DNA of 64,000 nt from Magnetovibrio sp. (GTDB taxonomy: Bacteria > Pseudomonadota > Alphaproteobacteria > Rhodospirillales > Casp-alpha2): positions 43,360 through 107,359 of the forward strand of contig PBLS01000043.1 of the NCBI GenBank assembly GCA_002721825.1, written 5' to 3'. Made by a program: the position numbers and the translations under genes. A model generated the notes under the pieces. The model worked only from the letters and a program-made list of their open reading frames with translations, did not search any database and was not told where the DNA came from. This document shows positions 10,320-45,397 of this stretch, piece after piece. Positions within the stretch are counted from its first letter, which is position 1, and each line of letters opens with the position of its first letter.

Positions 10320-10324
10320 CAAAA

Positions 10325-24909: not shown

Positions 24910-24955
24910 CCGAATATCCTACTTAGTCTCCGCACACGATGATCACACACACATT

Positions 24956-24993: not shown

Positions 24994-25107
24994 CTCAACA
25001 AACTCCGGAGATATTTGTAATATATGTAATCCCAATTAGCCAGCTTTAAGCGAAGGGTAATTTCGGCTAATATCACTGCAAACCGATGATTTTATGATGT
25101 AAAAATA

Positions 25108-27428: not shown

Positions 27429-28201
27429 TAGTATTTATATAAATCCTTGTAGTCTGGAACGGTTTGCTCAAGTTGAGCGAACTCATCATAGGGATCGTAG
27501 GCGAAACCATCATTGTGCATGAATTGCACGTTAATTTTTATGCTGCCATCTGATCCGTCGCGAAAAGACTTGTGTACGCAGAAAGAATTGAGAAACACAA
27601 CATCGCACGGATCTGCTTCCAAAATGATTTCTTCGCATCCGTCTACAACATCAGGCTTTCTGAGTTCGATCTGGCCATCGGTAATTTTGTGTTCGAGCAT
27701 TCCCAATTTATGTGTTCCTGAGTAACAGACAATCGATCCATTTTTGGGATCGATACGGGTTAACGGCACCCAAACGGTGATGCAACTGGCCGACCGAATC
27801 GAACGCAAATCTTGATGTAGGCGGGTCAAATAACGTTTTTCGAATTCTCCAGGTATGTCAAACCTGACTGTCGGCACCTGTAGAGAAACTGGAAATGCTA
27901 AGCCGAGGACCTCAAGGGCGTAGAGAATATCAGGATGGTACTGCGTAGCGCGAATAGCGGGCGCGTGGCGTACTAGTTCATAGACCGCTTTTCTGTGTGG
28001 TGAATTTGGCTCCATAACCTTGTAGACCAACGTTTCTAAATCGTATTGCGGTGTATCGAGTACACCAAGCTTTTGAGCTTGGTGTGCAAAGAGACAATGC
28101 AATTGGGCCTTCATGTCGTTAACCCAATCGCGACTTAGCATACCAGGGGCGTGTAGGAAGCCAGATTGATTGAAGGCCTTTATTTGTTCATGTGTAAGCA
28201 T
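27428..28201 (-). CDS. PhyH-family Fe(II)/2-oxoglutarate dioxygenase
   Basis: N-terminal LTHEQIKAFNQSGF, an HxD triad element (LHQDL) and a distal His (GTHKLG). The ATG at 28201 lies 6 nt after AAGGAG. The track start at 28228 is TTG. Confidence 0.75.
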   Translation of the reverse strand: MLTHEQIKAFNQSGFLHAPGMLSRDWVNDMKAQLHCLFAHQAQKLGVLDTPQYDLETLVYKVMEPNSPHRKAVYELVRHAPAIRATQYHPDILYALEVLGLAFPVSLQVPTVRFDIPGEFEKRYLTRLHQDLRSIRSASCITVWVPLTRIDPKNGSIVCYSGTHKLGMLEHKITDGQIELRKPDVVDGCEEIILEADPCDVVFLNSFCVHKSFRDGSDGSIKINVQFMHNDGFAYDPYDEFAQLEQTVPDYKDLYKY

Positions 28202-28221
28202 GCCGATCTCCTTTGCCGTAT

Positions 28222-30078: not shown

Positions 30079-30084
30079 GTTAAA

Positions 30085-30474
30085 TTATTTTTCTTGTGAC
30101 GTGTTTGCGACGAAAGCCGCGAAGGCTTGCAACGTTGCTTCGTCAAGCCATGCTACAAGGGTTTGTTCCTCATCTTTGAGATAGTGCTCAAATTGGGCTT
30201 CTCGACCGGCCTCGACAAGTAAGACATAAAATCGACCTGCTTCGTTACGCGTCAACGCCGGCCGTAATCCCTTTGCCGGGAGGCGGCCATTAAGCGAGGG
30301 GGTCGCATAATATCCAAAGTTCTTTCGCGCCACATCGAATTCGGTTCCTGAATCGGTTGCGAACGTTAATTGCTCGTCTGGATCGAGAAAAACAAGACCC
30401 ATGTCACTCAGAGTAATGGTGCCAGTTTTACCGACATTGAAGGTTCGTGGTGGCCAGTTTCGCTTAACCCTCAT
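30085..30474 (-). CDS. hypothetical protein
   Basis: 129-aa ORF with an ATGA overlap to the upstream gene. I recognise no motif. Confidence 0.6.
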   Translation of the reverse strand: MRVKRNWPPRTFNVGKTGTITLSDMGLVFLDPDEQLTFATDSGTEFDVARKNFGYYATPSLNGRLPAKGLRPALTRNEAGRFYVLLVEAGREAQFEHYLKDEEQTLVAWLDEATLQAFAAFVANTSQEK

Positions 30475-31304
30475 TTGGGCGCCGCTGTCAAAAACGTATA
30501 AAGTGTGTATTTGGTGCTGGGTTCTCGAATGCGTTCCATGAAGTCCACCCGGAAACCCGAGCGCTGAGCAAGCAACGCCATTGAGGCGGCACTAAATACA
30601 TGCGGATGATCGATTGTAAATTCTTCGCGCGCAGCTCCTTCGGGGTCTTCGATTGCAGCTTCTCCATCGGGTAGCTCAACGTAGCAAATGCCACCAGGTT
30701 TAAGGATTGGGCGTGCGCGTGCTAGCATAGAAATAGGCTCCCGTACATGCTCAAGAACCTTGTTGAACGTCACAAGGCTAAACTTTGGTAAATTCTGAGC
30801 AGTCATGAAGTCGGCATGGATGGCCGAAACTCCAACCACGTTGCGAGCATGCTGCGCTTGACGCGAATCTGGGTCAAGCGCTGTTACGTTCCAGCCCGCC
30901 TGTTTCATGGCATGGGGAAAAACGCCAAGGCCCGAACCAACATCAAGAACATCAAGAGCTAACGGCGTGTCTTTAAGATGCGGGCGTGAGTACATATTGA
31001 CTCGCTTGACCCGGAATGCGTTATCAGATTGGTTGGGCGGTAGTGCAATTATTTGTTCAAATGTTTGCCGCAGTCTATCGTCGCCATAATTTGCATCCGC
31101 GTAAGCACTTGTGTAAAGCTGACCGAGGTCCATATCATGGGTTGAAAAAAAATGGCCGCAGCGTGTACAGCGATGCAGATCTCGCCTATACACAGCGTTT
31201 GCGACAGGCGCAAAGCAAACCTCATTTGGAGGCGGCGATGTGAACGTTGTCACGAGCTCAAGAGCGCCGTGAGAGCAGAATGTACAACTGCTAATCAATG
31301 TCAT
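30471..31304 (-). CDS. class I SAM-dependent methyltransferase with N-terminal zinc ribbon
   Basis: CTFCSHG ... CTRCGHFF zinc ribbon and motif I VLDVGSGLGVF. Confidence 0.85.
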   Translation of the reverse strand: MTLISSCTFCSHGALELVTTFTSPPPNEVCFAPVANAVYRRDLHRCTRCGHFFSTHDMDLGQLYTSAYADANYGDDRLRQTFEQIIALPPNQSDNAFRVKRVNMYSRPHLKDTPLALDVLDVGSGLGVFPHAMKQAGWNVTALDPDSRQAQHARNVVGVSAIHADFMTAQNLPKFSLVTFNKVLEHVREPISMLARARPILKPGGICYVELPDGEAAIEDPEGAAREEFTIDHPHVFSAASMALLAQRSGFRVDFMERIREPSTKYTLYTFLTAAPK

Positions 31305-31548
31305 TATTATAAGTTTCTATGTAGCCACTAAAATTTGGATAGTCAAACCAGCCGATGGTCCGATGATTAATCTTATTTAGTAATCTTGCAACCTCGCTAT
31401 TAGCATGGTGTTTCGACGAAACTGACAGAGAAAACGGGTGTTTTGTTTGAAAGATCAATGCCGCGTAGAACCCTTTTCCTGCACACGAGTGTTCTGCCAT
31501 GGGATTGCATAAATTTCCACCCTTTCCGGCTACCCTTGTATTTAGCAT
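31291..31548 (-). CDS. small hypothetical protein (85 aa), doubtful
   Basis: It is the only ORF in the 354-nt gap. Its stop overlaps the next start by 14 nt. No motif. Confidence 0.3.
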   Translation of the reverse strand: MLNTRVAGKGGNLCNPMAEHSCAGKGFYAALIFQTKHPFSLSVSSKHHANSEVARLLNKINHRTIGWFDYPNFSGYIETYNNDID

Positions 31549-31658
31549 TTGATTCTGTCCTTACCTTCATCAACTAGTCCACTTTGAGCATGATGTCAGC
31601 GTAGTGCGAAGTGACGATGTCAGGAGATGGCTGAAACTTGCGGATGGGGCCCATATGT

Positions 31659-32771
31659 TTAACCTTCATGCCAGTCCCAGTCAGGAATCAAGAAATCGTC
31701 AATCCTCCAAATGCCTTCATCATGCCGCCAAATGGTGGAGTTTCGGAAGCTGGCTGCAATTGAAAAAAAATGGCTGGTTGAGATGTCAAGAAAATCACAA
31801 AATTTATCGATGTCTTCGTAAGGCGTTTGATCTCCAGCGTCTTTGATAAGATAGATAGCTTGCTCGCGTGTTAGGCGGCCGTTCCGAATTTCCAGCGATA
31901 AGTTGTCCCACAATCGAGTGAAGCCAAACTTGTGCCACTTAAACCAGTGATGGATTGAAATGAAGTCGTCATCGATATCAGCGTAGTTGTATAACCCAGT
32001 CTTTGCTCTTGCCGCACTTTCAAAGCCGTGTGTCGCGGCTACTTTATAGACGTTTTCGGCATCCCAAGAGAAATAATAACCCAGAAATACACCTAAGACT
32101 TTTTCCCGGTCAAACGAGAGTGGTCCAAAATAAGGCGTCAGGTCGTGTTCAGTTAATTCGTCATCAAGCCAGTCACGCGCGACCGTTCCGTGGGTGACGC
32201 CGTACCTGGCAACCCATTCATTGTCCAGCCTGAATCCCTGATGCATGGCTTCGCCGGTGTATTCTGAGGCTGTGTTCTCTCCCCAGATCATAAGCGGAAC
32301 GTTGAACCGGCAAGCAATATTCAGCGGAATGTTAAATATGGCCATATGCATGGGCAGGCCGGGTGTTCCCATCTTGGTGAGAGCCTTGTATGTAAATTTG
32401 CGTTCCACTTTGGGGTTTATCTGAAAATCGATATGATCGACGCCAAGATAAATGAGATTATCCAGGTTTTTTTGACCGAGAGGAGTTCGACCTGGTGTCC
32501 GCCAGGTAACGCATAAGGGATTGAGGCCATAATCTTTGCATTTCGCAACTTGCCATGTGCTATCTTTACCGCCGCTCACGGGAATAACGCAGTCGTAGCC
32601 TGTGCTTTTACGTTTGGCATTATCAACCACGTGGCGGAATGCAAGTTCTCTTGCTGGCCAATCTATGCTGACTCGGACTTCAGCACTTCTACAAGCGCTA
32701 CAAACGCCGGCCTCATCGAACGTGAGGCCTGGGCGAGTCGTGGGCAAGACACACTTAGTGCAGTACTTCAT
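31659..32771 (-). CDS. N-acetyl-sugar amidotransferase (WbpG/PseA/PtmG type; forms acetamidino groups)
   Basis: N-terminal MKYCTKCVLPTTRPGLTFDEAGVCSAC zinc ribbon and PP-loop PVSGGKDS. TAATG overlap with asnB. Confidence 0.8.
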   Translation of the reverse strand: MKYCTKCVLPTTRPGLTFDEAGVCSACRSAEVRVSIDWPARELAFRHVVDNAKRKSTGYDCVIPVSGGKDSTWQVAKCKDYGLNPLCVTWRTPGRTPLGQKNLDNLIYLGVDHIDFQINPKVERKFTYKALTKMGTPGLPMHMAIFNIPLNIACRFNVPLMIWGENTASEYTGEAMHQGFRLDNEWVARYGVTHGTVARDWLDDELTEHDLTPYFGPLSFDREKVLGVFLGYYFSWDAENVYKVAATHGFESAARAKTGLYNYADIDDDFISIHHWFKWHKFGFTRLWDNLSLEIRNGRLTREQAIYLIKDAGDQTPYEDIDKFCDFLDISTSHFFSIAASFRNSTIWRHDEGIWRIDDFLIPDWDWHEG

Positions 32772-34600
32772 TAGGAATGGGCCTCGACAAAAAATTTTGC
32801 AGAGATGAAATAGAACAAGAACTTGCTTTTGCTATTTGGCAGTTCGTCCTCATCTAGAAGTGATTCGATTCGATCGCGCCGCACGTGTTGAAAAATGATG
32901 CTATCATCTAACAACGTCTCGCGGACATGCGGGTCACGATGGTTCAGGAAATGCAAAATCGGAGCATTGAAACCGACTTTGCGACGGTTGTTGATGACTG
33001 AGGTTGGGGCCAAGCCCCGCACGGCTTCACGAAGGATGATCTTAGCCTTGCCGTCGCGGACGAGATGGCGATCGGGAATACGCATTGAGAATTCGAAGAG
33101 GCAGCGATCCAGGAATGGCGAGCGGTTCTCAACCGAATAATACATTGCGTTTAAATCGTCCTCGTGCAGGATTGCCGGAACGGCCTCGTGGAAAAGCTCG
33201 TTCATCATACGGTTTCGCAATAAGCTTGGTGTGTAGCAGTGCTCGGTGAACGGTTCGTGCCATGGCGTCGTTAGGTACTCCTGCATTTCGTGCGAATTGA
33301 GGAAAATATGATCCCGCATGTTGGGATTATCGATGAATGCGCGTGGATCTTGGAGAAACGGATTTCTTACAACGGGTTTGATATACGAACGCCAATTACG
33401 AATGGATTCGTTGAGTAATTTTTCATCATCCTGGACTGCATTCATGTAGAGTAAATGATGGTCATAATAACCACTGAACAACTCGTCAGCCCCGGTTCCG
33501 CTTATAGATACGCGATATCCGTGTTTGGAAATTTGCTGCTGCAATAACCAATGCGCGTAATACGAAATGGTGTAGACAGGCGCATCATGGTAGGAAACTA
33601 GGGTTCGCAAGCCGTCTAGAAATCCTGAGGTGTCGGTTGGGATAGCGGTATGACTCAACTCAAGCTGTTGTACAGTTTCTTCGACTAATGGCCATTCGTC
33701 ATAACGCTCGTCGCTGTTGACAGCCGTGAATCCATGAATGGCGGAGTTTGAGATTTTTTGTGCAATACTGATGAGGGCAATCGAATCTACACCGCCGCTC
33801 ATGCAGAATGCTACCGGGACATCACTCCGCAATCTAAGCTCGACCGCCCGGATTAGTTGGAGTCGAATTTCCTCAACCGCCTCGTTAAAGCTCATTCTTG
33901 CATCCGGCGCATACGCAGGCGACCAAAACTTGACAGGCAAACTCAGTCCGTCAGTCTTTGCTTCAGCAAATGATGCGGCCGGAAATTCTTCTACATTTGA
34001 ATAGAATGTCGCTGGCTGCTTATAAAGTGATTTATAGCCGTTGACCAAATAACGAGATAGCTGTGACCAGTCGAGATCTGGAGAAATTCCACTCAGGGCT
34101 AGGAGAAATTTAATCTCTGATCCAAAATAGAACCCATGTTTTTGGCGCAGAATGTATAGAGGTTTTTCTCCAAATCGGTCGCGGGAGAGTAAAATGGCAC
34201 CTGTCGATAGATCTAACCGTGCTAAACTCCACATGCCTTCGAATTTATCAAATGCTTGGGTTCCCCAATGACTGATCGCACGGCTCATAACTTCTGTATC
34301 TGATTCGGAGATAAATTGATGGCCAGCGCTTTTCAGTTGTGCGCGAATCTCCCGGTAATTGTATAGCTCGCCATTGTAGACGATGGCGCTATTCGCAACA
34401 TTGAAAGGCTGATCCGCGCGAGAATCTAAGTCGATGATTCTAAGCCGCGCATGCAAAAGTACAACATGGTGACAGTCGGGAAATTCATAGGCTTTAGCTC
34501 GTTGGATGTCCGGGCCTCGGCGACGCATCAGCGACAATGCGGAGTCAATGGCTTGCGCGCGCGGTGGTGCATTACCCACGTAACCTGCAATGCCACACAT
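32771..34600 (-). CDS. asnB: asparagine synthase (glutamine-hydrolysing) family amidotransferase
   Basis: MCGIAGYVG Ntn nucleophile and PP-loop CMSGGVDS. It is 609 aa long. Confidence 0.85.
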   Translation of the reverse strand: MCGIAGYVGNAPPRAQAIDSALSLMRRRGPDIQRAKAYEFPDCHHVVLLHARLRIIDLDSRADQPFNVANSAIVYNGELYNYREIRAQLKSAGHQFISESDTEVMSRAISHWGTQAFDKFEGMWSLARLDLSTGAILLSRDRFGEKPLYILRQKHGFYFGSEIKFLLALSGISPDLDWSQLSRYLVNGYKSLYKQPATFYSNVEEFPAASFAEAKTDGLSLPVKFWSPAYAPDARMSFNEAVEEIRLQLIRAVELRLRSDVPVAFCMSGGVDSIALISIAQKISNSAIHGFTAVNSDERYDEWPLVEETVQQLELSHTAIPTDTSGFLDGLRTLVSYHDAPVYTISYYAHWLLQQQISKHGYRVSISGTGADELFSGYYDHHLLYMNAVQDDEKLLNESIRNWRSYIKPVVRNPFLQDPRAFIDNPNMRDHIFLNSHEMQEYLTTPWHEPFTEHCYTPSLLRNRMMNELFHEAVPAILHEDDLNAMYYSVENRSPFLDRCLFEFSMRIPDRHLVRDGKAKIILREAVRGLAPTSVINNRRKVGFNAPILHFLNHRDPHVRETLLDDSIIFQHVRRDRIESLLDEDELPNSKSKFLFYFISAKFFVEAHS

Positions 34601-34813
34601 TAGGTTGCAGGCCTAAGCTTTTGTGGCCTTGCTCCACAAACTATTACCGCGTTTTGTCTGAGCAAGCCGCGGGTGCATTCGCTAGCACCATCGGATTGCA
34701 TTAATGCGTCGGGCTTAAAAGCGCTTTTCAAATAAGGGGATTGGGTATTGAGCATGTCTTCCGAGACTTCTCGATGACTAAAATAACTGGTAATACTGCA
34801 TATGGTTTAGACT

Positions 34814-36133
34814 CTATTCTATAACTTCTAGAAGCTCGTTCTCGACCAGACAATGTGCCGCTTTGGCTAGGCTCTCGACCGACAAACCGCTTTGGTTTGA
34901 GATTTGAAAAAGATCGTGGTCACCATCTGAAAAATTTAGCAGCCACTTTATCGCGATGACGTCAATATCCTTTTGGATGGTAGCTCCGAGTGTGCTCATC
35001 AAGCCGCGGCGACCCAAGTTAGGTTCACCGAACGGCGCGAGGTTCCGGTAGCTTTGATTTAATTCCAGTGCAAGACAGATTTGGTAGATGGTTTGGATCG
35101 AATGCTGTAGCGTTTTAAAACTTATACAATCCTTGTTATCCAAGGACGTGTGGTATTCGGGGTAGTGTGCCGGCCATGAGCGTGCAATTACACCGACTGG
35201 AAGATTGAACCCCGGTGAACAATACTGCCTTTCATCACTTCCGGACGGAAAGAAATCAAGAATTTTTGACTCGTTGTCCCGCGCGTTGGCCAAAACTGAT
35301 TGTGCTGCTTGATCGGCGAAGCTGTTCCCTCTGCGGGAACGCTTGTAGGTTATTCCGGTTGGATCGCCGAGGCAGGTAAGAACAAAACCAGCATGCATGA
35401 CGTCCCTGAAATGGTCACCTAGTTTTGACAAATATACGATACTTCCAATGGTTTCTGGAAGAAACGCGAACCGATAGGTGAAGCGCCGGCATTTTAGTGC
35501 CGAGAGCATGCGATAGAGAAACATGGCGGAAAGCGGACCGGATAGCTCGTTGTTTGCCATTGAGGGGTGGCAGGTATATGTGGAAATAAGGATTTCTTGT
35601 CGCGAGGTGCCTGGCAGCACCGCCTCGGACAAGGTCATTGAGCCGGGTTGTAGCGTTGTTTTGATGACGACCTTGTATTTTTGATCAGGCAGCAGTCTCC
35701 GTTGGTGGTCCGACAAGCAGAACCCCCATCGGCGTTCGTAGTAGGAGGTAACATATGGGATGGCATTGGGCAGATCCGGTAAACTGTGGAGATTTTTATC
35801 GAGCTCTTGGCGCGTGAGAACGCCGCAGAAAGGAATCGAGTAGTTGACTAGGTGTAGGTTGTTGTCGCGAACATCGACGACCCGTTCGCCATCCGAGGTC
35901 TCTATATAGGCCTCTTGTACGTTCCACTCGTCAGGAACAAACCAATCAAAACATTTGGTTCCGCTTGCCACTTCCATGCGCTCTAAAGGCACAATTTCAG
36001 CTAGGATGTCATGGGTCTTACGGACACCATTACCGGTAATAGACCGGAGGATCGGCCATAGCCGATCAAAGTGACTCTCCAGCTCGCTTTCGGAGGGAAG
36101 TGTTTCCGAGCCAGTGAAATCAATCACAGACAT
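34814..36133 (-). CDS. aminopeptidase-like-domain protein (DUF2172/DUF4910-type) with C-terminal winged-helix-like region
   Basis: FAFLPETIGSIVYL and the overall layout are recalled from the family. The ATG at 36133 gives a 14-nt overlap with the upstream stop. The track start at 36226 lies inside the upstream gene. Confidence 0.5.
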   Translation of the reverse strand: MSVIDFTGSETLPSESELESHFDRLWPILRSITGNGVRKTHDILAEIVPLERMEVASGTKCFDWFVPDEWNVQEAYIETSDGERVVDVRDNNLHLVNYSIPFCGVLTRQELDKNLHSLPDLPNAIPYVTSYYERRWGFCLSDHQRRLLPDQKYKVVIKTTLQPGSMTLSEAVLPGTSRQEILISTYTCHPSMANNELSGPLSAMFLYRMLSALKCRRFTYRFAFLPETIGSIVYLSKLGDHFRDVMHAGFVLTCLGDPTGITYKRSRRGNSFADQAAQSVLANARDNESKILDFFPSGSDERQYCSPGFNLPVGVIARSWPAHYPEYHTSLDNKDCISFKTLQHSIQTIYQICLALELNQSYRNLAPFGEPNLGRRGLMSTLGATIQKDIDVIAIKWLLNFSDGDHDLFQISNQSGLSVESLAKAAHCLVENELLEVIE

Positions 36134-37025
36134 CAGCCTCAATGACACCAGCAGAGCATAGAAAAAAACCGCGCCAATCGTCGGTCCGACCTTCCAACTT
36201 GATTGACTCTTGTCGGAACCCAGCACCGATATCAGACTCGAGCATTGGTGGCGCTGCGTGAAAATGGTACCAGTGGAACACTAGATTCTTTAGCCCAGCT
36301 TCGTCGAAAAGTGTTGGTATGGTGAATGGATTGTGGAACTTAGCTTGGATCGCGTCGTAACCAAGCTCGCCTCTGGCAGATTGTAACCGGCGCGGCGGCA
36401 TTTCTAGCGCCAGCCGCGTGTCCAGGTCTTGTGCTACAGCGTCACGAACCTGGCAGTCGATTCCGTCTAGAAGGTCGTCCATGAAGAATTCCTTCGTATT
36501 TCGATTGAGAGTGAATAGTGAAAAAAGCTTGTTACGAAACTCAATGAAAACTTTGCCACCACTATGAACGATACTGTGCATATTTTTCAGAGCTAGCACA
36601 TCGTCGATGACATGTGGCAAAACGCCGAATGCGATCAGAGCGTCGAATTGTCCACCGGTAAGTTGATTGGAAAAAGAGCTGGCGTTTTCGATATCGGCAA
36701 TTTGGCAGGTATGTGGGTCGAAACCGGACTCCTCCATTTTGTTTCGGGTCGCATCCACCATATTTTCCGAAATATCGCAACCAGCAACTTCGAATCCAGC
36801 CTTGGCCATCGCGGTAATTGGGGTGCCTTCACCAGTGCCCACCTCATAAATGCGTTTGGCATCGCTATCCATTAACCTGGTTAGTAAATTTTGTAGGCGG
36901 AAATAATTTGCTGGATATTTCTCAAGTGTATATAGGTTGGCTGGATCGTATTGCTGGTCATATGTAGCAGCTACATCGTTATAATGGGCAATTATCTCGG
37001 CCTTTTTGTCAGCGTCATTAGTCAC
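36120..37025 (-). CDS. class I SAM-dependent methyltransferase
   Basis: Motif I IYEVGTGEGTP. GTG start with AGGAAA 7 nt upstream. Confidence 0.85.
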   Translation of the reverse strand: MTNDADKKAEIIAHYNDVAATYDQQYDPANLYTLEKYPANYFRLQNLLTRLMDSDAKRIYEVGTGEGTPITAMAKAGFEVAGCDISENMVDATRNKMEESGFDPHTCQIADIENASSFSNQLTGGQFDALIAFGVLPHVIDDVLALKNMHSIVHSGGKVFIEFRNKLFSLFTLNRNTKEFFMDDLLDGIDCQVRDAVAQDLDTRLALEMPPRRLQSARGELGYDAIQAKFHNPFTIPTLFDEAGLKNLVFHWYHFHAAPPMLESDIGAGFRQESIKLEGRTDDWRGFFLCSAGVIEADVCD

Positions 37026-37034
37026 GAAAATTTC

Positions 37035-38063
37035 CTACTTCACTCTATTGATGTTTTTTAAGTCGTTTTCGGTGATTGCGGCGCCGCGTTGAATGTTCCG
37101 AGATACGCGTCGGCCAATAACCGTTTGTTCATTACCGGGTGCAATGCCGGTCGCGGGCCTGAGCCAGGTAAGGTCCTGGTTCGTTATCTGCGCTCCAGCC
37201 GACAAGTTGCAGGCGGCGGAGATTGAGCGCCGGTAATCGACACGGCCTTGCTGTTCGCAATCTTGGACGAATTTCTCAGGAGAACCTAGCATGGTCTCCG
37301 TTGCCCGAATGTCACTGACGATTTGTTTCATTTCTTCCGGGTCCGCGGACAGTTGGTGATCCCTGAAATCTGAGTAGTTTTTGTCGATCGTGAAGTGCTT
37401 TTCGATGATACGTGCGCCAGCTGCGACGGCGAGCGGCGTCGTAGACATTTCTACGGAATGGTCGGAGTATCCGATGGTTTCTCCAAGGGCGCCATAAAGA
37501 ACTCGGATCAGGGCTAAATTGACGGCGTTGGCAGGTGCCGGGTAGGCCGAGATGCAATGTAAAATACCGCAGTGAAGTTCGGTTGATGTGTTTGATGCGG
37601 CGTCGCGCATGACTGTGATGCTGGCTCGAATTTCATTTAGGGTTGCTAGTCCAGTCGACAAAAGCACGGGTTTCTCTTTCTCCGCGATGCTTTGTAGCAA
37701 GGGATGAAAGGTTAAATCCCCAGAAGCTACTTTGAAAGCATCAACGAGCGGTGATAGGGTTTCCACGCTCCCCATATCCAATGGTGTCGATATGAACAAT
37801 AGTCCGGCCCCACGTGCTTGCTTTGCCAAGGCTGAGAACTGATTTGCATCCAGCTCCATGCTCCTAAGGCGCTCCATGCGGTCAGGGTCTGCAGGGTTGC
37901 CAAAGTCTGCCGCTCGGAAGGTTTGGAATTTTACAGCATCAACGCCTAATTTCGCCGCCTCTGAGATTAGTTTCTGAGCTAAGTCAAAGTCGCCCTCATG
38001 ATTGTTTCCAATTTCGGCAATAATCAAAACCTTGGTATCAGTATTTATTGAGCCGATGCGCAT
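37035..38063 (-). CDS. NeuB/PseI/LegI-family nonulosonic acid synthase
   Basis: VLIIAEIGNNHEGDFDLAQKLI ... VDAVKFQTF and a C-terminal SAF-like domain. It is 342 aa long. Confidence 0.88.
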   Translation of the reverse strand: MRIGSINTDTKVLIIAEIGNNHEGDFDLAQKLISEAAKLGVDAVKFQTFRAADFGNPADPDRMERLRSMELDANQFSALAKQARGAGLLFISTPLDMGSVETLSPLVDAFKVASGDLTFHPLLQSIAEKEKPVLLSTGLATLNEIRASITVMRDAASNTSTELHCGILHCISAYPAPANAVNLALIRVLYGALGETIGYSDHSVEMSTTPLAVAAGARIIEKHFTIDKNYSDFRDHQLSADPEEMKQIVSDIRATETMLGSPEKFVQDCEQQGRVDYRRSISAACNLSAGAQITNQDLTWLRPATGIAPGNEQTVIGRRVSRNIQRGAAITENDLKNINRVK

Positions 38064-38084
38064 ATATGCTGTTCCGATTCTTTT

Positions 38085-38786
38085 CTAGGTATCGTGCCGA
38101 TGGTAGACATAGGTAGTAGCGACCAATGCAAAGCCAAGCTTCTCATAAAACGCAACCGAAGCTGTATTTGCTTTTTGGGTGCCCACGCGCACAACAGCGC
38201 CGGGTTTGACCTTTGCTTGCAAGGTTTGGATCAAGGCTGTTCCGTGGCCAGTGCCGCGTTGGCAAGGAGCTACGGCAGTCAAGTCGATCACATAAGTTTC
38301 GCTGTCGGGGCGCAGGATCTGTAAAAACCCGACAACAGCGCCTTCGGCGGTTTCTGCGACCAGCATGTGATCGCCTCGCAGACCTCTAAAGAAATTGCGA
38401 GCCCAGGCCTCCTTGAGGGTGTCAGCGATCTCGTTAGGGATCGAGGCGTCACGGTGGAAGCGATCATGGGAGAAACCGGTTCTGGCGATTCGGGCCACAG
38501 ATTCCTCGTCGGAGGATCGGGCATAGCGGCAGGAATATGATGAGTTCAGTATCCGTCGCCCTTTCCATACGTAAGTTAGAGCCTCATCAGCCAGATGAAA
38601 CCCCTTTGATCTTAACCATGCGGCGAAGCTATCGTCGTCTTTTTTTGTTGCACAATACAAAAAACGCGGCCCCGAAGCCCGTGGGAGATCGCCCGTGCCA
38701 CCATTCAATCTATAGGTGGGCACGCCAAGTATCTCACCTAGCCATGGATCACTCAACAACAACTGATAATCCAGCGTGGCTATCAC
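38085..38786 (-). CDS. GNAT-family N-acetyltransferase (two-domain, WecD/PseH-like)
   Basis: Acetyl-CoA motif A QRGTGHGTALI. The start is uncertain (GTG at 38786 or one of the TTG codons at the upstream stop). The track ORF extends to 38861 inside the upstream gene. Confidence 0.7.
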   Translation of the reverse strand: MIATLDYQLLLSDPWLGEILGVPTYRLNGGTGDLPRASGPRFLYCATKKDDDSFAAWLRSKGFHLADEALTYVWKGRRILNSSYSCRYARSSDEESVARIARTGFSHDRFHRDASIPNEIADTLKEAWARNFFRGLRGDHMLVAETAEGAVVGFLQILRPDSETYVIDLTAVAPCQRGTGHGTALIQTLQAKVKPGAVVRVGTQKANTASVAFYEKLGFALVATTYVYHRHDT

Positions 38787-39795
38787 CGTGCTCCATATTC
38801 TTGTACCAGTCGATATATTCAACAAAGCCTTGTTCCAGCTGATACTGGCTCTGGTAGCCAAGCAGAGATTTTGCTTTTTCTATAGAGAGAGTGCCGCGTT
38901 TTGGCATTAAACGGTCCCAATCGGCATGTTTAATTTTTGCTTCTGGGAAATGTTGCTTCAATATTTTCGCCATTTCGGACAACGTTCGTGCATTGCCAGT
39001 TGTGAGATTGAAAATCTGATTTTTTGCGTTTTCCGTCGATATGGCCAACATCAGCCCGTTGACGAAATCTTTTATATACGTGAAATCTAGTTTGTCGGAG
39101 CCGTCGCCGGTGATAGTGATCTCGTGGCCGTTCATGGCGTTTTCAATAAATATCTGTCCAACCCGTCGACTAACACAGCGTTGCCCGTAAAGCGCGGATG
39201 GACGAATGATAGTATAGGGCAAGTCAAAAACCTGATTGTAAGCAACCACCATTTTTTCACCCGAAAACTTAAGTGCTCCATAGATCCCTATAGGGTCAAG
39301 CGGTGAGTTCTCTTTTACCTCAGCCTGTAGGAAATTCCCGTAAATCATGCTCGATGACAAGTAGATAAACTGCTCGATTTTGAGGCTGCGAGCGTTGTCT
39401 AGAGAATTTTCTAGTGTCCGCAGGCTGTGATCGAACGTTGAATGTGGGTCTTTGTTCGATTGGTTCGCATGGGCGATTGCTGCAAGATGTACTATAACAT
39501 GAGGCCGAATGTTATCTAAAGATTGGCATAGAAGATGATAGTCACGGGCATCCACTACATGGACCGGGATATTATTTTGTTGCAACAGGTCCATTCGTTC
39601 ATGCAGTATTTGGAGGTATATATCGCGGTTCGGCATACTTGGGTTGCCGTAAATGGTCCCCAGGTGATTGACCTGTAGCCCATCAATGACGTGGACGTCG
39701 GCACCGTTTTCTTTAAGCGCCAAGGCAAGGTTGTGACCTATGAACCCGGCTCCGCCAACCAAAGCAATACGTTTGTCTTTTACTGCAATTTTCAT
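38749..39795 (-). CDS. NAD-dependent sugar epimerase/dehydratase (extended SDR)
   Basis: VGGAGFIGHNL and YGALK (YxxxK). The ATG at 39795 forms an ATGA overlap with the DegT stop. Confidence 0.85.
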   Translation of the reverse strand: MKIAVKDKRIALVGGAGFIGHNLALALKENGADVHVIDGLQVNHLGTIYGNPSMPNRDIYLQILHERMDLLQQNNIPVHVVDARDYHLLCQSLDNIRPHVIVHLAAIAHANQSNKDPHSTFDHSLRTLENSLDNARSLKIEQFIYLSSSMIYGNFLQAEVKENSPLDPIGIYGALKFSGEKMVVAYNQVFDLPYTIIRPSALYGQRCVSRRVGQIFIENAMNGHEITITGDGSDKLDFTYIKDFVNGLMLAISTENAKNQIFNLTTGNARTLSEMAKILKQHFPEAKIKHADWDRLMPKRGTLSIEKAKSLLGYQSQYQLEQGFVEYIDWYKNMEHGDSHAGLSVVVE

Positions 39796-40955
39796 TCTTT
39801 TAGATCCTGAAGTGTATTTAAAAAAATTTCGCAAATATAGTAAATATCATCTTCGCTTACATGTGGGCCTAGTGGAAAATTAAAAGATGTATCGCTAATC
39901 AACTCCGCATTTTGAAAAGTACCGTTTATGTATCCATATTTTTCACGATAGTATTTCAGGCGCGGTAGGGGGTGTGGATAGTGGACACTGACGCCAATTC
40001 CATAAGTCGGCAATATAGCTAGCAAGTCATTGCGTAGTCCAGGTTTTGGCTTGTTAAGCACCACGGTGAGACAATAGTAAGAGTTTTTAGAGCGAGGGTC
40101 GACGGGTTCTAGTATTCTAAAACCATCTTGGTCTTTCAGACATTCTTTATAGGCATTAAAGTTTCGCAGCCGAGCAGAAAAAAAAGCTGGTGCGCGTTTT
40201 AACTGACTGGTTCCAAGCGCAGCCTGCATCTCACTCATGCGAAAATTCATGCCAAGGCCGTTGACATCGTAAATTCCAGGAAGTTTGCGTTCGTTTAAAC
40301 TTCGATCATAACAAAAGCCACGCAATCTCTTTATTGCTGTTGCTGTACTTGCGCATTGTGATGAGAACATCCCACCTTCTGCTGAGGTAATATGTTTTGC
40401 TGGATAGAAGGAAAACGCTGCTCCATCTCCAAATAATCCGACGTGCGTACCATCCCATGTCCCACCCAGCGAAGTTGCACAATCCTCCAAAACAGGAAGT
40501 CCGTATTTATTTGCGATAGCCATTATCGAGGTCATGTCTGCGGGAATGCCATTATAATGAACTACGCAGATTGCTCTCGTAGCCTTGCCTATAGCAGATG
40601 CCAGTGCATTTGGGTCTATGTTTCCAGTATACTGATCGCAATCAACGAATATTGGCTTCGCGCCAGTTATTTCTAGCGCGTGAGCAGTAGCCACATGACT
40701 GATTGCTGGCAGGATTACTTCATCACCCGGACCTGTATTTATGTGCATATTAAAGAGGTGAAGTGCGGCAGTACATGAGCTGGTTGTAACACAATTACCC
40801 CCTCCGAGGAAATTGGCGAAGGTGCTTTCAAACAACTCACAACGCGGACCGTGTGTTAATATGGGGTCTTGCAGCGATTTTGCTACTTGCGCACGGTCGA
40901 CGTCGTTAATCATAGGTTTGCCGAAAGGGATCTCGCGGCTGTTTTTTTCAAACAT
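39792..40955 (-). CDS. DegT/DnrJ/EryC1-family sugar aminotransferase
   Basis: FSFYPAKHITSAEGG with the PLP lysine present. It is 387 aa long. Confidence 0.88.
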   Translation of the reverse strand: MFEKNSREIPFGKPMINDVDRAQVAKSLQDPILTHGPRCELFESTFANFLGGGNCVTTSSCTAALHLFNMHINTGPGDEVILPAISHVATAHALEITGAKPIFVDCDQYTGNIDPNALASAIGKATRAICVVHYNGIPADMTSIMAIANKYGLPVLEDCATSLGGTWDGTHVGLFGDGAAFSFYPAKHITSAEGGMFSSQCASTATAIKRLRGFCYDRSLNERKLPGIYDVNGLGMNFRMSEMQAALGTSQLKRAPAFFSARLRNFNAYKECLKDQDGFRILEPVDPRSKNSYYCLTVVLNKPKPGLRNDLLAILPTYGIGVSVHYPHPLPRLKYYREKYGYINGTFQNAELISDTSFNFPLGPHVSEDDIYYICEIFLNTLQDLKE

Positions 40956-41988
40956 AGTTTATATTTACGCTAGTGCCGGCTTGCAAAGAATTGTCAGATG
41001 CAGCGATAATGGATATGAGATCAAAGTTTTGTTGTGCTCGTTTTTCAAAATTTTTGTTTAATAAAATATCATCTAAAAATTGTGGAATTAGCTCTCCTTT
41101 ATGTTTAGGCAAAGGCGATTGACTTATCATTTGGGCAGCTGAAGGGGGATTCGCGTCGAACCCGCGCATTTTAAAGTCGTGATCCCGCAATTTTAAGATC
41201 CGAGCACCTTGATCATCGTAAATAAATGTTGCCTTTGTGCCAAAAATTCTCACTACATGTTGGTGATGATGGGCGCAGCCGAAATTTGCAGTTATACGGC
41301 CGATCCTGCCAGACGGGAAAATAAAATTTGCAGCCTGAAAATCATGGTATTTAAAATTAGACCTAGCCGTAGCTATATTAGTTCCGGTCGTTGAGACCGA
41401 AACTGGGCGGTCCTCCAGCATCATCAGCATTAAGTCAACCAAGTGTATCCCACCGCCTAACATGACGGAATAGTCTTTTATTTGATTGCGCCAGCCGCTT
41501 GTTATTTTTTCCAAGCGGCCATAAAGATAGTCTCCATCAAACGCATAGATTTCTCCTAATTCACCATTACTAATCGCTTTATATAACCATTTATATAATG
41601 GCGCAGCTCGGAGAATAAGATTTGATTCAATAGCCGGTTTATTATTTTGGAGCCAAAGTTTTTTTATTTCTTTAAGCTCACTGATTGTCCGACACAAAGG
41701 TTTTTCGACAAAAAGATTTTTACCATTTCTGATACCGGACGTTACCTGACTGAAATGTGCATCATCAAACGAAGCAATAGAAATAATTTGAACCCCCTTA
41801 TCATTAAAAATTTTTTGCTCATCTGCGAAAGCTGCGCCTAGTTTCTTAGCTAGTTTTTTGGCTTTCTTATAGTCTAAGTCATATAATAGTTTCAGCGTGG
41901 CCTTGGGGGAATCCACATACGTTTGAGCATGTTGTTCTCCCACACCTAAACCAATTATTGCTGCCCCGAGAGGAGATCGAGCAATCAT
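40948..41988 (-). CDS. Gfo/Idh/MocA-family oxidoreductase
   Basis: AAIIGLGVGEQH and LFVEKP motifs. ATGA overlap with the upstream gene. Confidence 0.85.
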   Translation of the reverse strand: MIARSPLGAAIIGLGVGEQHAQTYVDSPKATLKLLYDLDYKKAKKLAKKLGAAFADEQKIFNDKGVQIISIASFDDAHFSQVTSGIRNGKNLFVEKPLCRTISELKEIKKLWLQNNKPAIESNLILRAAPLYKWLYKAISNGELGEIYAFDGDYLYGRLEKITSGWRNQIKDYSVMLGGGIHLVDLMLMMLEDRPVSVSTTGTNIATARSNFKYHDFQAANFIFPSGRIGRITANFGCAHHHQHVVRIFGTKATFIYDDQGARILKLRDHDFKMRGFDANPPSAAQMISQSPLPKHKGELIPQFLDDILLNKNFEKRAQQNFDLISIIAASDNSLQAGTSVNINYV

Positions 41989-42617
41989 AGAGGCAAGCTT
42001 TCAAGTCTCCGAAGATCTTCTAGAGTATCGACTACACAATCAAATTTTATAGGGAATTCGTTAGGTTTCACAAAGTTGTATATTTTATAGTTATTATTTC
42101 GATTATAAAAATAAGGAGTTACGTGTTCTTGTTCTTCAGCATTTAAAACCGTTGTATTTACATTGAATAATGCTTGTGACTTTATAACTTCAATGCTTTG
42201 GCCCTTTGGGAATGTGCGAGGGTAGACATTTGTGACTAAATCAAATCGTCCGGTCAGCGCAGCTTTTTGTACATCAAGCAGCAGGTCGACCGATATTAGT
42301 GGACTATCTCCGCAGATCCGACCGATAAATTTAGCGGGGAACGTTGTAAGGGCATCGCAAAACCTTTTATGTACATTTTTAAGGTTTCCTCGGAAAAGTT
42401 GCCAACCGCAGGTGGTAGCGTAGGCCGCTAGTGGATCATCGGTTGGGTGGTCGCTAGTTAGCAGAATCGTTTCCCTTTGTCCTGAGGCCTTGATTGCGGC
42501 AGCCATAACGTGGTCGATTAAAGGTTTGCCGTGAAATGGAGCCAACATCTTTCCTGGAAAGCGACGTGAACTCATTCGGGCCTGTATGAAGAAGCGGAGG
42601 TCTAGATTTGTGGCCAA
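41985..42617 (-). CDS. cytidylyltransferase (SpsF/PseF-type, CMP-nonulosonate synthetase-like)
   Basis: IQARMSSRRFPGKML motif. It is 210 aa long. TTG start. Confidence 0.7.
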   Translation of the reverse strand: MATNLDLRFFIQARMSSRRFPGKMLAPFHGKPLIDHVMAAAIKASGQRETILLTSDHPTDDPLAAYATTCGWQLFRGNLKNVHKRFCDALTTFPAKFIGRICGDSPLISVDLLLDVQKAALTGRFDLVTNVYPRTFPKGQSIEVIKSQALFNVNTTVLNAEEQEHVTPYFYNRNNNYKIYNFVKPNEFPIKFDCVVDTLEDLRRLESLPL

Positions 42618-42649: not shown

Positions 42650-43981
42650 TTACGCATTTATAATATTTTTAAATTCTACTGCGTTGCCAATAGCATTTCG
42701 CGTATCTACCACCAGCGGCGACGCTTTGGCTAGCAATCTGTAGTCTATGTCATCATGGTCAGTGCAGATTAGCGCAGCATCAGAAGATGCGAGAGTTTTT
42801 TTATCCAGAGGTATTGATTGTCGGCCCGATAATTCGCCGTGGTCTCGTGTATCGGGAATTGCCGGGATAAGTGGGTCGTGAAAGACTGTATTCGCCCCAC
42901 GTTCTTCCAACAGTTTTATAATGGTCAATGCAGGACTTTCACGGGTGTCGGCACAATTTTTTTTGTAAGCAATTCCGATTATAATTATTTTAGCACCACT
43001 AAGAGGCTTGGAAAAACGCTCTAAAAGCGCCTTTTCCAAGGAATCGACCACGTAAATAGGCATTTTAGTATTTATCTCGCCTGCTAATTCAATAAATTGA
43101 GATTGCAGACCGACTTGACGTGCTTTCCAGCTAAGGTAGAACGGATCTATAGGAATGCAGTGGCCACCGAGCCCCGGTCCAGGATAGAAAGGCATAAAGC
43201 CGAAGGGCTTTGTGCTCGCACCTTGTATAACTTCCCAAATGTCTATCCCCATAGAACTGTAAATAATCTTCAACTCATTAACTAGCGCTATGTTAATTGC
43301 GCGAAAGACGTTCTCGGTAATTTTTACGGCTTCTGCTGTTGACATTGAACTAACTGGCACGACTTTTTTAATAACTGCACCGTATAATTTCACAGCCAAT
43401 GTGGAAGAGTTTTCATCATTACCGCCAACGACTTTTGGAATGGTCCCCGTTGAGAATTCCGCGTTACCGGGATCCTCTCGTTCAGGCGAATATGCTAGAA
43501 AAATATCTTTACCAATTTTGAGGCCACTATTGTCAAGAATTGGACGGACTACTTCGTCACAGGTACCCGGATAGGTAGTAGATTCAAGCACTACTAATTG
43601 ACCAGGCCGAAGGTAATTTTTTATTGTTCTGGATGTTGATATGACGAAACCTAAGTCTGGTTCACGTTGATCTGAAAGTGGGGTTGGTACGCAAACAATG
43701 ATAACATCCATTTTGCTTAAATCATCAAAATTAGCTGAGGCCTGAAGAAGTCCTGACGTGACCACCGAGCGAATAATAGATTGGGGAATATGCTTGATAT
43801 ATGACTGGCCCGCCATGAGTGCGTCGATTTTATTTTGGTCAATATCAAAGCCAGTTGTATGAAATTGTTCTTTGGCAAATTGAATGGCAAGCGGCAAGCC
43901 CACATAGCCCATGCCAATGATCCCAATATTTGCCGACCGTTTCTTTATACGCTCTAAGAGCTGATTAGCGAAGTTACTCAT
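42650..43981 (-). CDS. UDP-sugar 6-dehydrogenase (UDP-GlcNAc/ManNAc dehydrogenase type)
   Basis: IGIIGMGYVGLPLA Rossmann motif and the catalytic Cys motif GGHCIPIDP. It is 443 aa long. Confidence 0.88.
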   Translation of the reverse strand: MSNFANQLLERIKKRSANIGIIGMGYVGLPLAIQFAKEQFHTTGFDIDQNKIDALMAGQSYIKHIPQSIIRSVVTSGLLQASANFDDLSKMDVIIVCVPTPLSDQREPDLGFVISTSRTIKNYLRPGQLVVLESTTYPGTCDEVVRPILDNSGLKIGKDIFLAYSPEREDPGNAEFSTGTIPKVVGGNDENSSTLAVKLYGAVIKKVVPVSSMSTAEAVKITENVFRAINIALVNELKIIYSSMGIDIWEVIQGASTKPFGFMPFYPGPGLGGHCIPIDPFYLSWKARQVGLQSQFIELAGEINTKMPIYVVDSLEKALLERFSKPLSGAKIIIIGIAYKKNCADTRESPALTIIKLLEERGANTVFHDPLIPAIPDTRDHGELSGRQSIPLDKKTLASSDAALICTDHDDIDYRLLAKASPLVVDTRNAIGNAVEFKNIINA

Positions 43982-44118
43982 ATTTTCTAGCAGGTAGGAT
44001 TTTATTCTTAAAAAATCTCATAATTTGTAAAAATAAATTTTGCTCATCGAACAGGGCCTAAGGGAAAAGCTCTTTTTATTATATGCCACATAAAATTTTC
44101 TGCGACAGAACTTTGTCC

Positions 44119-44130
44119 ACGCTACCGCAG
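44119..44130 (-). promoter_or_regulatory. ops-like (operon polarity suppressor) element
   Basis: The minus strand reads TGCGGTAGCGTG, an 11/12 match to the enterobacterial ops GGCGGTAGCGTG. It lies 52 nt downstream of the RfaH-like gene and 138-149 nt upstream of the first biosynthetic gene. Confidence 0.6.
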
Positions 44131-44133
44131 TTC

Positions 44134-44154
44134 GGGTGAAGATGCTTCACCCGT
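44134..44154 (-). promoter_or_regulatory. perfect 9-bp stem / 3-nt loop hairpin immediately 5' of the ops-like element
   Basis: cgggtgaag-atg-cttcacccg. No U-tract follows on the transcribed strand, so it is not a classical intrinsic terminator. Confidence 0.4.
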
Positions 44155-44181
44155 CTGAACGTGCTCAGATGGTCAAAACGT

Positions 44182-44685
44182 CTAACTTAAAGTTGTTAGC
44201 GATTCAACCGGGATACGCGCCTTTACTTGGCGACCGAGTAAGTCCATCAGGACCACAGCACGGCGGCGGTCATCCAGACATTCTATAATTGCTATTTGTT
44301 CGGCCAAAGGGCCGTCGCCGATACGCACGTGCTGCCCCGGTTTAAAAATAGATCCATCGCTTAAACATATTAGTCCATCTTTATTTTCGCGAGCTTGGAT
44401 TGTATCAATTATTTCTTGACGTGCCGTTAAGGGGCGTTCGCCATCGAACATTATTCCACTAACCCCGACGGTGCTCTTAATTGCGCGCCATGGACTGCGC
44501 TCAGGGTCGTGAGCAACAAAAAGGTACCGTGGGAAGAAAGGACGAATCACGCGCTCCACACGTCTCGCATGTCGGCGAGTTTTAGCATAGCGTGGCAAAT
44601 AGACAATGCGGCCTTGCTGTCGCAGGTGGTTTTCCGCCCGTGCTTCGGAGTGGACATGTGTGTAGACTACTAGCCATTGACTCAT
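44182..44685 (-). CDS. rfaH: RfaH-type NusG paralog (operon-specific transcription antiterminator)
   Basis: WLVVYTHVHSEARAENHLRQQG ... RPFFPRYLFV ... DPE matches the RfaH NGN pattern. KOW-like GQHVRIGDGPLAEQIAII. ATGA overlap with the upstream regulator. Confidence 0.8.
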   Translation of the reverse strand: MSQWLVVYTHVHSEARAENHLRQQGRIVYLPRYAKTRRHARRVERVIRPFFPRYLFVAHDPERSPWRAIKSTVGVSGIMFDGERPLTARQEIIDTIQARENKDGLICLSDGSIFKPGQHVRIGDGPLAEQIAIIECLDDRRRAVVLMDLLGRQVKARIPVESLTTLS

Positions 44686-45356
44686 AATGGCTTTCCTTCA
44701 ACATCTTGTCCGAGCGTATTACGGTTAACGGATGTATTTACTTTTAAAAAATTTGGTGCAAGTAGAGGAACTTTTGGATAGGTGGCGAGCAAGCGATTGT
44801 AGGCAGCTTGTGGATCCCCTAGGTCTGTGATTACGATGACATCACAAGTATCTTCTTTAAGTGTCTTGACGATTGGAACTTCCGCATAACTAATTTTAAG
44901 CGAATCTTTGTCAACAATTGCGACAATGGAGATATCTGCCTCGGTCGCGCACAATAACGCAATTTCAGCCAAGTCTGTTAGGCCATGCATGGCGACTCGC
45001 TTGTATCCATTTGCCATGCAGAGTTTAAAAACAGCAGCCATATCCGATCTAGCCATACGGAAAAATTGAAAACTTTGGCTAAAATATTCTGAGGTAAGAC
45101 GACTCTTTTCCGCAAAACCTTTTGGTGTTAAATAATAGACGTAGCGGTTAGCTGGCGCCTGTTTAATTTTAATAAAACCTTTTTTTACACAAAGCTTTAA
45201 ATAAGTATTCGCGAGACCCAGGGCAATTCCAAGCTCTTGGGCAAGAGAACGCTGAGTTAAATTGTTGTCCGCTTCGACCCTTTGGAGCAACTCAAGCGTA
45301 ATAGTTGGTGCGGTCTGGTTAAGTTTACTTTGACGTTGCGGCATCGATAGACTCAC
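44682..45356 (-). CDS. MarR-type winged-helix regulator (EPS-associated type) with C-terminal Rossmann-like domain
   Basis: LTQRSLAQELGIALGLANTYLKLCVKKGFI ... YYLTPKG winged helix. The start is GTG at 45356 or ATG at 45344. Confidence 0.7.
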   Translation of the reverse strand: MSLSMPQRQSKLNQTAPTITLELLQRVEADNNLTQRSLAQELGIALGLANTYLKLCVKKGFIKIKQAPANRYVYYLTPKGFAEKSRLTSEYFSQSFQFFRMARSDMAAVFKLCMANGYKRVAMHGLTDLAEIALLCATEADISIVAIVDKDSLKISYAEVPIVKTLKEDTCDVIVITDLGDPQAAYNRLLATYPKVPLLAPNFLKVNTSVNRNTLGQDVEGKPL

Positions 45357-45370
45357 ATGTGTTCAGCGAA

Positions 45371-45397
45371 TGAACGTACTATGTTCAAGCCATGAAC
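45371..45397. promoter_or_regulatory. candidate operator: TGAAC-N7-GTTCA-N5-TGAAC
   Basis: Half-sites at 45371-75, 45383-87 and 45393-97. ATGAACGT is repeated at 45370 and 45392 (22-nt spacing). The sites lie directly upstream of the regulator gene start. Confidence 0.3.

Follow-up and report, generated by a model that had tools for sequence, protein, structure and literature searches.

A putative MarR-RfaH-hairpin-ops regulatory cassette heading a very long glycan gene array in a Magnetovibrio genome and its alphaproteobacterial relatives

We analyzed a 64-kb stretch of DNA from Magnetovibrio sp. (64,000 nucleotides; GenBank assembly GCA_002721825.1, contig PBLS01000043.1, positions 43,360 to 107,359), which we call the window. 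The source genome is a metagenome-assembled genome (MAG) of 2.73 Mb, 85% complete with 43% GC, and the window lies on its 114-kb contig. Read along the minus strand, the window holds two tandem palindromes, a gene for a MarR_EPS-like winged-helix regulator, a gene for an RfaH-like paralog of NusG, a perfect hairpin, a match to the ops element that recruits RfaH, and a long co-directional run of glycan genes (Table 1). We interpret this layout as a four-part regulatory cassette, consisting of an operator/promoter, the MarR_EPS-like gene, the RfaH-like gene, and a hairpin-ops element, which would head a very long surface-glycan array. We give this reading a probability of roughly 0.8.

Table 1. 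Features of the regulatory region and downstream array, in window coordinates
Feature	Coordinates	Strand	Basis or remark
Two tandem 15-bp palindromes, GTTCA-N5-TGAAC, 22 bp apart (putative operator)	45361-45375 and 45383-45397 (45361..45397)	.	Genome palindrome search
MarR_EPS-like winged-helix regulator gene, 224 amino acids (aa) from GTG at 45356	44682..45356	-	HTH_24, TIGR04176
RfaH-like NusG paralog, 167 aa, NGN and KOW	44182..44685	-	Pfam/NCBIfam scores, alignment, AlphaFold2
Perfect 9-bp hairpin with 3-nucleotide (nt) loop, CGGGTGAAG-CAT-CTTCACCCG, 3 nt upstream of ops	44133..44153	-	Sequence, folding
ops, TGCGGTAGCGTG, coding (non-template) strand	44118..44129	-	11/12 match to E. coli ops GGCGGTAGCGTG
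AT-rich untranslated spacer, 136 nt, from ops to first biosynthetic gene	43982..44117	-	Contains TATAAT at 44083..44078
Nucleotide-sugar dehydrogenase (UDP-glucose/GDP-mannose dehydrogenase family), first downstream gene	42650..43981	-	TIGR03026, 425 bits
Rest of the co-directional glycan biosynthesis/modification array in the window	1..42617	-	Profile matches

A preliminary description of the window, made from its letters without database searches, had assigned the 167-aa protein to the RfaH type, and the family models agree. RfaH (TIGR01955) is its best NCBIfam model at 107.4 bits over residues 4-163, ahead of UpxY (NF033644, 63.8 bits; cut-off 100), LoaP (54.7 bits), and the NusG models, and Pfam finds the NusG NGN domain (62 bits). 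RfaH is also the top match in a sequence search of the PDB, and the phmmer alignment to the Escherichia coli RfaH there runs without gaps over residues 1-103. Named homologs of the factor occur in Magnetospirillum, Magnetovibrio, Rhodospirillaceae, and other Alphaproteobacteria and are annotated as RfaH by NCBI or JGI; the Magnetospirillum carriers include cultured relatives. The KOW domain of the preliminary description has no Pfam match in this protein; full-length alignments with RfaH and NusG and a beta-barrel in the AlphaFold2 model bear it out. The protein has the two-domain architecture of NusG paralogs (NGN plus a KOW-type C-terminal domain, about 160 aa), and it keeps the E. coli ops-contact or functional residues R16, H20, Q24, T72, and I93. 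Its gene holds the only NusG NGN domain found in the source genome; the housekeeping nusG, which appears as ORFs (open reading frames) of 177-186 aa in relatives, is missing from the 85%-complete assembly.

Exactly 52 nt past the TAG stop of the rfaH-like gene, the coding strand reads TGCGGTAGCGTG, which agrees at 11 of 12 positions with ops defined as the 12-mer GGCGGTAGnnTG on the non-template strand. The sequence, strand, and distance first described for this match stand; it spans 44129..44118 and does not start at 44119. When we searched the source genome with a covariance model, the hairpin-ops of the window gave the one strong match (46.3 bits), and the next best reached 20.8 bits. That second site, GCGGTAGCATG at G000:C38:20813-20823, was judged a chance match: it lacks a hairpin and overlaps the start codon of a 296-aa housekeeping gene whose neighbors are priA and, downstream, a tyrosine-recombinase gene that resembles xerC in sequence. 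Two other GCGGTAGCGTG words, on contigs C91 and C94, were rejected because they have no hairpin and score at most 19 bits.

The significance of the ops match comes from its conservation at orthologous loci, since a single match is insufficient. In a sample of 96 genomes of the same family, we found 73 rfaH-like loci in 66 genomes (33-51% protein identity). A hairpin followed by [T/G]GCGGTAGC[A/G/T]TG lies within 200 nt downstream on the same strand at 53 of the 73, and six more carry the hairpin-ops motif 2-10 kb downstream, again on the same strand. Among 29 fetched family loci, whose rfaH-like proteins are 40-51% identical, 26 have this sequence on the coding strand 50-76 nt past the rfaH-like stop with the hairpin before it. 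The ops letters of 27 loci are invariant at positions 2-9, 11, and 12, while position 1 is mostly T and sometimes G. The 21-nt pattern CACCYNRANKGCGGTAGCNTG gave 65 matches in the 96 genomes, usually one per genome, against one for the reversed control, so that the motif is near-absent away from these genes. The reading of the 12-mer as ops in the preliminary description is upheld by these counts, which support the view that it behaves as a genuine ops element.

Beyond the family, 25 of the 250 genomes sampled across the class carried a relaxed motif (27 matches vs 9 in the control), and a marR and an rfaH gene stood directly upstream of it in 6 of 12 class-level fetched loci. The motif is also present in MAGs labelled Rhodospirillaceae and Pseudolabrys. 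A related-locus search of genome contigs returned only four loci; the genome-wide search of relatives was far richer. What the comparisons show is the anatomy: the elements are there, they are kept together, and their order is as given. Based on these comparisons, we regard the hairpin-ops cassette as genuine and widely conserved, a variant, encoded in cis, of an antitermination system already known. No published description of an alphaproteobacterial hairpin-ops cassette was found in the literature searched, the coverage of which was incomplete.

The same data bear on whether the 11/12 match arose by chance beside a NusG paralog and has no regulatory meaning. Shuffled versions of the window contained at least one such match in 14 of 100 cases, and GCGGTAGNNTG is not enriched genome-wide (20 matches vs 25 in the reversed control). 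Against this, position, strand, spacing, and hairpin are kept in dozens of loci at 35-51% protein identity across several alphaproteobacterial families. We consider the chance explanation effectively refuted by this comparative pattern.

The hairpin is conserved in a manner that points to a structure in single-stranded nucleic acid. The perfect 9-bp hairpin reported just before ops is present, at 44153..44133 and not 44154..44134. Across loci, its 3' arm is conserved in sequence, (T)TCACCC(G)G, and its 5' arm covaries with it: the base pair just before ops is C:G in 11 loci and G:C in 7, and six pair types occur at position -4. The loop measures 3-10 nt, and the spacing between hairpin and ops stays at 0-3 nt across distant loci. 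For 41 loci, we folded 35-nt segments (the 32 nt upstream of ops plus its first three nucleotides) and compared them with shuffles and chimeras. The mean minimum free energy was -16.3 kcal/mol, with z < -2 relative to shuffles in 32 of the 41, and chimeras joining a 5' half to a foreign 3' half folded less stably (-12.5 vs -16.3 kcal/mol for the native segments). Because the loop varies while the 3' arm is conserved and the 5' arm follows it, a single-stranded (RNA) hairpin fits better than a double-stranded DNA dyad. We rejected a double-stranded DNA operator on the grounds of the variable loop length and asymmetric arm conservation, and an intrinsic terminator because no T-run follows the stem.

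These conclusions use per-sequence folds with the above controls. Our own covariance model (R1) re-finds the loci; it mis-registers the variable 5' arm, with 54% of cells paired and controls not exceeded, and its covariation counts were discarded. A search of Rfam with the window and 20 related loci gave nothing at the gathering score, and the 20 loci had no match to the JUMPstart family. On the window, JUMPstart (RF01707) scored 12.9 bits against a gathering score of 35, aligning through the ops letters only and treating the stem as an insertion. With a stem-loop directly 5' of ops in both, the hairpin-ops is an analogue of JUMPstart and not a member.

The regulator gene is closely linked to the rfaH-like gene. 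Its stop overlaps the rfaH-like start (ATGA), and each of the 30 family loci has a marR-like homolog, 40-52% identical, directly before its rfaH-like gene, the two usually overlapping by 4 nt. The best model for the regulator is NCBIfam TIGR04176, MarR_EPS (65 bits over residues 19-106, under the cut-off of 88), and Pfam finds HTH_24 (33 bits). Relatives align only from residue 3-21 onward, in most cases from 19, and translation may therefore begin at the ATG at 45344 instead of the GTG at 45356. The part C-terminal to the winged helix, about 110 aa (44682-45020), is outside the MarR_EPS model and had no Pfam, NCBIfam, or PDB sequence match; it could be a ligand-sensing domain. A PDB sequence search with the MarR-like protein likewise gave no match.

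All 30 family loci, which include L011-L039, also have one or two GTTCA-N5-TGAAC palindromes just upstream of the marR-like gene, 20-34 bp apart if paired. The source genome contains six such sites, with about three expected, and two of the six are those upstream of the regulator. A site on contig C17, inside an AT-rich glycosyltransferase ORF, was judged a chance occurrence. The same palindrome precedes hairpin-ops copies that have no marR-rfaH before them, at a distance of 65-124 nt; these are second copies in three family genomes and three loci of other families (the palindrome loci besides L011-L039 are L046, L047, L052, and L064-L066). Other alphaproteobacterial families have it at two distances from ops: about 1.25-1.36 kb ahead where marR-rfaH intervene, and 65-124 nt ahead where they are absent. 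There are therefore two layouts, operator-leader-hairpin-ops-genes and operator-marR-rfaH-hairpin-ops-genes. On the simplest reading, the palindrome marks a promoter and operator, and the second layout has both regulator genes placed within the leader. The dyad is probably the operator of the MarR_EPS-like regulator.

In the three family genomes with two copies, the second hairpin-ops lies 34-40 kb further down the same strand, in the same clusters. These copies (L064, G054:C1:1646200-1649200; L065, G062:C3; L066, G055:C1) each follow an operator palindrome of their own and precede an unannotated ORF of 183-185 aa, by its sequence a likely HAD-type phosphatase. Such copies resemble re-loading points or sub-operons in their own right. 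In a locus of another family (L055, G108:C74:5723-8742), hairpin-ops comes immediately after a marR-like gene, and no rfaH-like gene was detected in between; the factor in that genome may be supplied from another locus and work in trans.

The close association with marR raises the possibility that the hairpin and GCGGTAGC are not a loading site for RfaH at all, and instead form a target of the MarR-like protein or an independent RNA element involved in stability, processing, or separation of the regulator mRNA from the cluster. The motif accompanies marR as tightly as rfaH, locus L055 has only the former, the TCACCCG of the 3' arm is kept in sequence beyond what pairing requires, and the factor lacks R73 and K10. 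However, the 8-nt core plus TG is identical letter by letter to E. coli ops, and the MarR-like protein has a far better candidate operator in GTTCA-N5-TGAAC. The loop of 3-10 nt and the asymmetric, covarying 5' arm fit a single-stranded hairpin and not a DNA dyad, and the missing T-run argues against an intrinsic terminator. We therefore hold it very improbable that the element is something other than an RfaH loading site.

By definition, an ops lies in the transcribed leader that precedes a long operon, and the comparative layout, namely an operator upstream and little or no promoter space downstream in relatives, supports this position here. The next gene in relatives begins about 20-100 nt after ops, most often 30-60 nt, a stretch that could barely hold a promoter, if at all. 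Since the palindrome also stands 65-124 nt before the hairpin-ops copies that lack marR-rfaH, a promoter upstream of marR is very probably the one from which ops is transcribed. The proposal that regulator and target share one transcription unit is very probable in light of the operator found upstream of marR-rfaH in 30 of 30 loci and the short distances after ops.

The preliminary description had also cautioned that a perfect TATAAT downstream of ops might be the main promoter, which would leave ops outside the transcript. On this rival account, the sugar genes would be transcribed mainly from there, and ops would be non-functional here. The hexamer is present at 44083..44078 on the minus strand, and the spacer that contains it is longer than in most relatives. 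However, there is no convincing -35 hexamer, and a promoter consensus scan found sites not above chance and was uninformative. In relatives whose RfaH-like proteins are 74% and 65% identical, neither the TATAAT nor the remainder of the spacer is conserved while the hairpin-ops is kept, which weakens the caveat, and in many relatives the next gene lies just 20-60 nt after ops. The intact hairpin and ops in the source genome also argue for their maintenance by selection. We consider it very improbable that the sugar genes depend mainly on a promoter downstream of ops.

The array behind the ops element is of the kind on which RfaH acts. As first described, the genes downstream are co-oriented to coordinate 1: in the ORF list of the window, every large ORF between 45356 and 81 is read from the minus strand. 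The run is even longer than was claimed, extending past coordinate 1 to contig position C43:21791 for a total of about 67 kb. The roughly 21.6 kb outside the window (C43:21791-43359) include ORFs of 1124 and 638 aa. All eleven junction overlaps listed earlier are there, as ATGA, GTGA, or TAATG. Beyond the dehydrogenase at its head, the array encodes cytidylyltransferases, aminotransferases, Gfo/Idh/MocA oxidoreductases, radical-SAM and B12-binding enzymes, many methyltransferases, and AsnB-like amidotransferases; by these matches, it is a giant locus for glycan synthesis and modification. In a consensus scan, itself uninformative, terminator-like sites in the array were not above chance, and no second hairpin-ops or operator palindrome was found inside it by word search, covariance model, or palindrome search. 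The array of about 67 kb is a candidate single operon. Long co-directional glycan arrays are classical RfaH targets (PMC7593976).

Based on this anatomy and on what is known of RfaH, we propose the following mechanism, in which pausing, binding, and antitermination are assigned by analogy. Transcription would start at the operator-controlled promoter upstream of the regulator gene. RNA polymerase would then pass marR and rfaH and pause at T11 of ops (between GCGT and G), 63 nt past the stop, as at E. coli ops; the ops sequence agrees with the G(-10)/Y(-1)/G(+1) consensus for pausing. The RNA hairpin would end 11-15 nt behind the paused 3' end and would probably prolong or shape the pause. By homology, the RfaH-like protein would read the GCGGTAG hairpin on the exposed non-template strand and bind RNA polymerase, and the modified enzyme would withstand pausing and Rho-dependent termination while transcribing 40-67 kb of sugar genes. 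Because the factor and its loading site share one transcript, initiation and elongation would be controlled in series. The result would be a feed-forward gate, with distal genes on only if the promoter is active and the factor has accumulated.

One alternative to this scheme concerns only the role of the hairpin. The ops could be functional while the hairpin is not a pause enhancer and instead blocks backtracking, stabilizes the mRNA as a 5' or 3' structure after processing, or acts as a barrier to Rho loading. Classical hairpin pauses have roughly 11-12 nt between hairpin and 3' end, and the stem in the window ends 15 nt behind the predicted pause, beyond that distance. In 17 of 27 loci, pairing of the stem also takes in ops nucleotides 1-3, which is possible only after escape. 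On the other side, the distance to ops is held at 0-3 nt even in distant loci, suggestive of a functional coupling to the ops pause, and the enterobacterial JUMPstart likewise has a stem-loop just 5' of ops (PMC2864571). A different role for the hairpin is possible, if on the unlikely side; it would leave the remainder of the cassette as proposed.

Several observations weigh against the cassette reading as a whole. A lone ops match is statistically insignificant, as the one match with at most one mismatch in 64 kb compares with 0.15 expected and 14 of 100 window shuffles give at least one. By the strict pattern, 14 of the 73 family rfaH-like loci lack the motif, some of them at contig ends. 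The RfaH-like protein scores under the NCBIfam RfaH cut-offs (107.4 vs 144.5 bits for TIGR01955; 84.7 vs 124 for NF006534), and several E. coli RfaH residues are replaced in it: K10 by H, R23 by Q, T68 by A, R73 by V, and E48 by R. The ops-contacting residues of E. coli RfaH have been given as K10, R16, H20, T68, T72, and R73 (PMC11880322), with K10 and R73 named elsewhere (PMC7593976), and these replacements mean that DNA recognition may differ from that of E. coli RfaH. At the R23 position, the protein has Q, with an R at position 22, and the clade consensus has R. The spacer between ops and the first sugar gene is 136 nt long and AT-rich in the source genome, and a local promoter there is possible. 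Finally, the array contains several gaps of 200-354 nt that could house internal promoters, and a single ops may be insufficient for all 67 kb.

The replaced residues also concern the regulation of the factor itself. In E. coli RfaH, autoinhibition depends on E48, I93, and F130; K10 is older than RfaH, and R73 arose late (PMC7593976). Only I93 of the autoinhibition residues is kept here, as F130 is replaced by I, and the HTTT motif reads PWRA. An AlphaFold2 model built with a 51-sequence clade alignment (predicted local distance difference test score, pLDDT, 85) predicts residues 119-159 as a beta-barrel C-terminal domain (pLDDT 77-86), and not as the alpha-helical domain of the autoinhibited state. 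The full-length Foldseek matches of this model were NusG and recruited, beta-state RfaH (8phk, 6c6s), while autoinhibited RfaH (2oug, 5ond, 8pfg) aligned across the NGN domain only. Since E48 and R73 are replaced and the C-terminal domain is modelled as beta, the factor may not be autoinhibited in the way of E. coli RfaH.

The closest known system is RfaH with ops/JUMPstart (RF01707) in E. coli and Salmonella. Both use a NusG paralog with NGN and KOW domains and an identical ops core, GCGGTAGC..TG, on the non-template strand ahead of long runs of polysaccharide genes, in the cassette as part of a putative leader, and in both a stem-loop lies immediately 5' of ops (PMC2864571). The differences are considerable. 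E. coli rfaH is monocistronic, unlinked to its targets, and acts in trans on several operons (PMC7593976), whereas the cassette gene lies 52 nt upstream of what is essentially the sole ops in its genome. The hairpin sequence differs from JUMPstart (12.9 bits vs 35), the protein departs at K10, R23, T68, R73, E48, and HTTT, and its C-terminal domain is modelled as a beta-barrel in place of the autoinhibitory alpha-hairpin.

Two other RfaH variants share part of this organization. On IncX3 plasmids, the RfaH homolog PrfaH is encoded in cis with its target operon and an ops-like site in the same unit; it is co-transcribed with virB, depends on the ops-like site, and has initiation controlled upstream by the repressor H-NS (PMC11880322). 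Unlike the cassette, in which ops is downstream of the factor gene, the IncX3 site is upstream of the prfaH start codon so that the factor acts on its own gene, and its targets are type IV secretion genes and not glycan genes. The predicted monomorphic "beta-RfaH" proteins (bioRxiv 2026, PMC13015549) resemble the cassette protein in having a NusG-like beta C-terminal domain by AlphaFold2, in lacking some ops-binding and autoinhibition residues, and in adjoining long envelope-related operons. In an E. coli reporter, monomorphic homologs reportedly acted independently of ops, and they were proposed to be recruited with no DNA signal (PMC13015549). By contrast, the alphaproteobacterial clade retains a strictly conserved ops and hairpin right after the gene; the word "Alphaproteobacteria" is absent from the text of that paper.

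More broadly, Bacteroides UpxY, Myxococcus TaA, and Bacillus LoaP are likewise specialized NusG paralogs at the head of the polysaccharide or polyketide operons that they control (PMC7593976). Their recruitment signals are different or unknown, UpxY using a 5' untranslated region upstream of its own gene, and the NCBIfam models for UpxY and LoaP score below RfaH on the cassette protein (63.8 and 54.7 vs 107 bits). A survey of the family counted 18% of rfaH genes as alphaproteobacterial and found that non-enterobacterial rfaH clusters neighbor envelope genes, with one cluster beside an HTH regulator; details of how RfaH is recruited are known for E. coli alone (PMC7593976).

We also raise a tentative and rather doubtful idea, that this clade may be an evolutionary intermediate outside current RfaH models. 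It would combine a non-autoinhibited, beta-state RfaH lacking R73 and E48 with a full ops and delivery in cis, and ops recognition would predate autoinhibition and action in trans. The spacing of 50-76 nt between stop and ops would then serve as a co-translational hand-off device, in which the ribosome releases the factor at the stop only about 60 nt behind a polymerase held at the hairpin-reinforced ops pause.

RfaH is a textbook fold-switching, sequence-recruited elongation factor. The present analysis suggests that the same ops core is used in Alphaproteobacteria, with the factor encoded directly before its target. The cassette departs from the classical system by a dedicated DNA-binding regulator with its putative operator and by a different, covarying hairpin, and its factor lacks residues thought to underlie autoinhibition and part of DNA reading. 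The clade would therefore provide a natural test of whether ops recognition or autoinhibition came first, and of whether cis-encoded RfaH homologs are really signal-independent, as has been proposed (PMC13015549). For many uncultured Alphaproteobacteria of sea and soil, the signature of operator plus hairpin-ops may also show where very long glycan operons truly begin.

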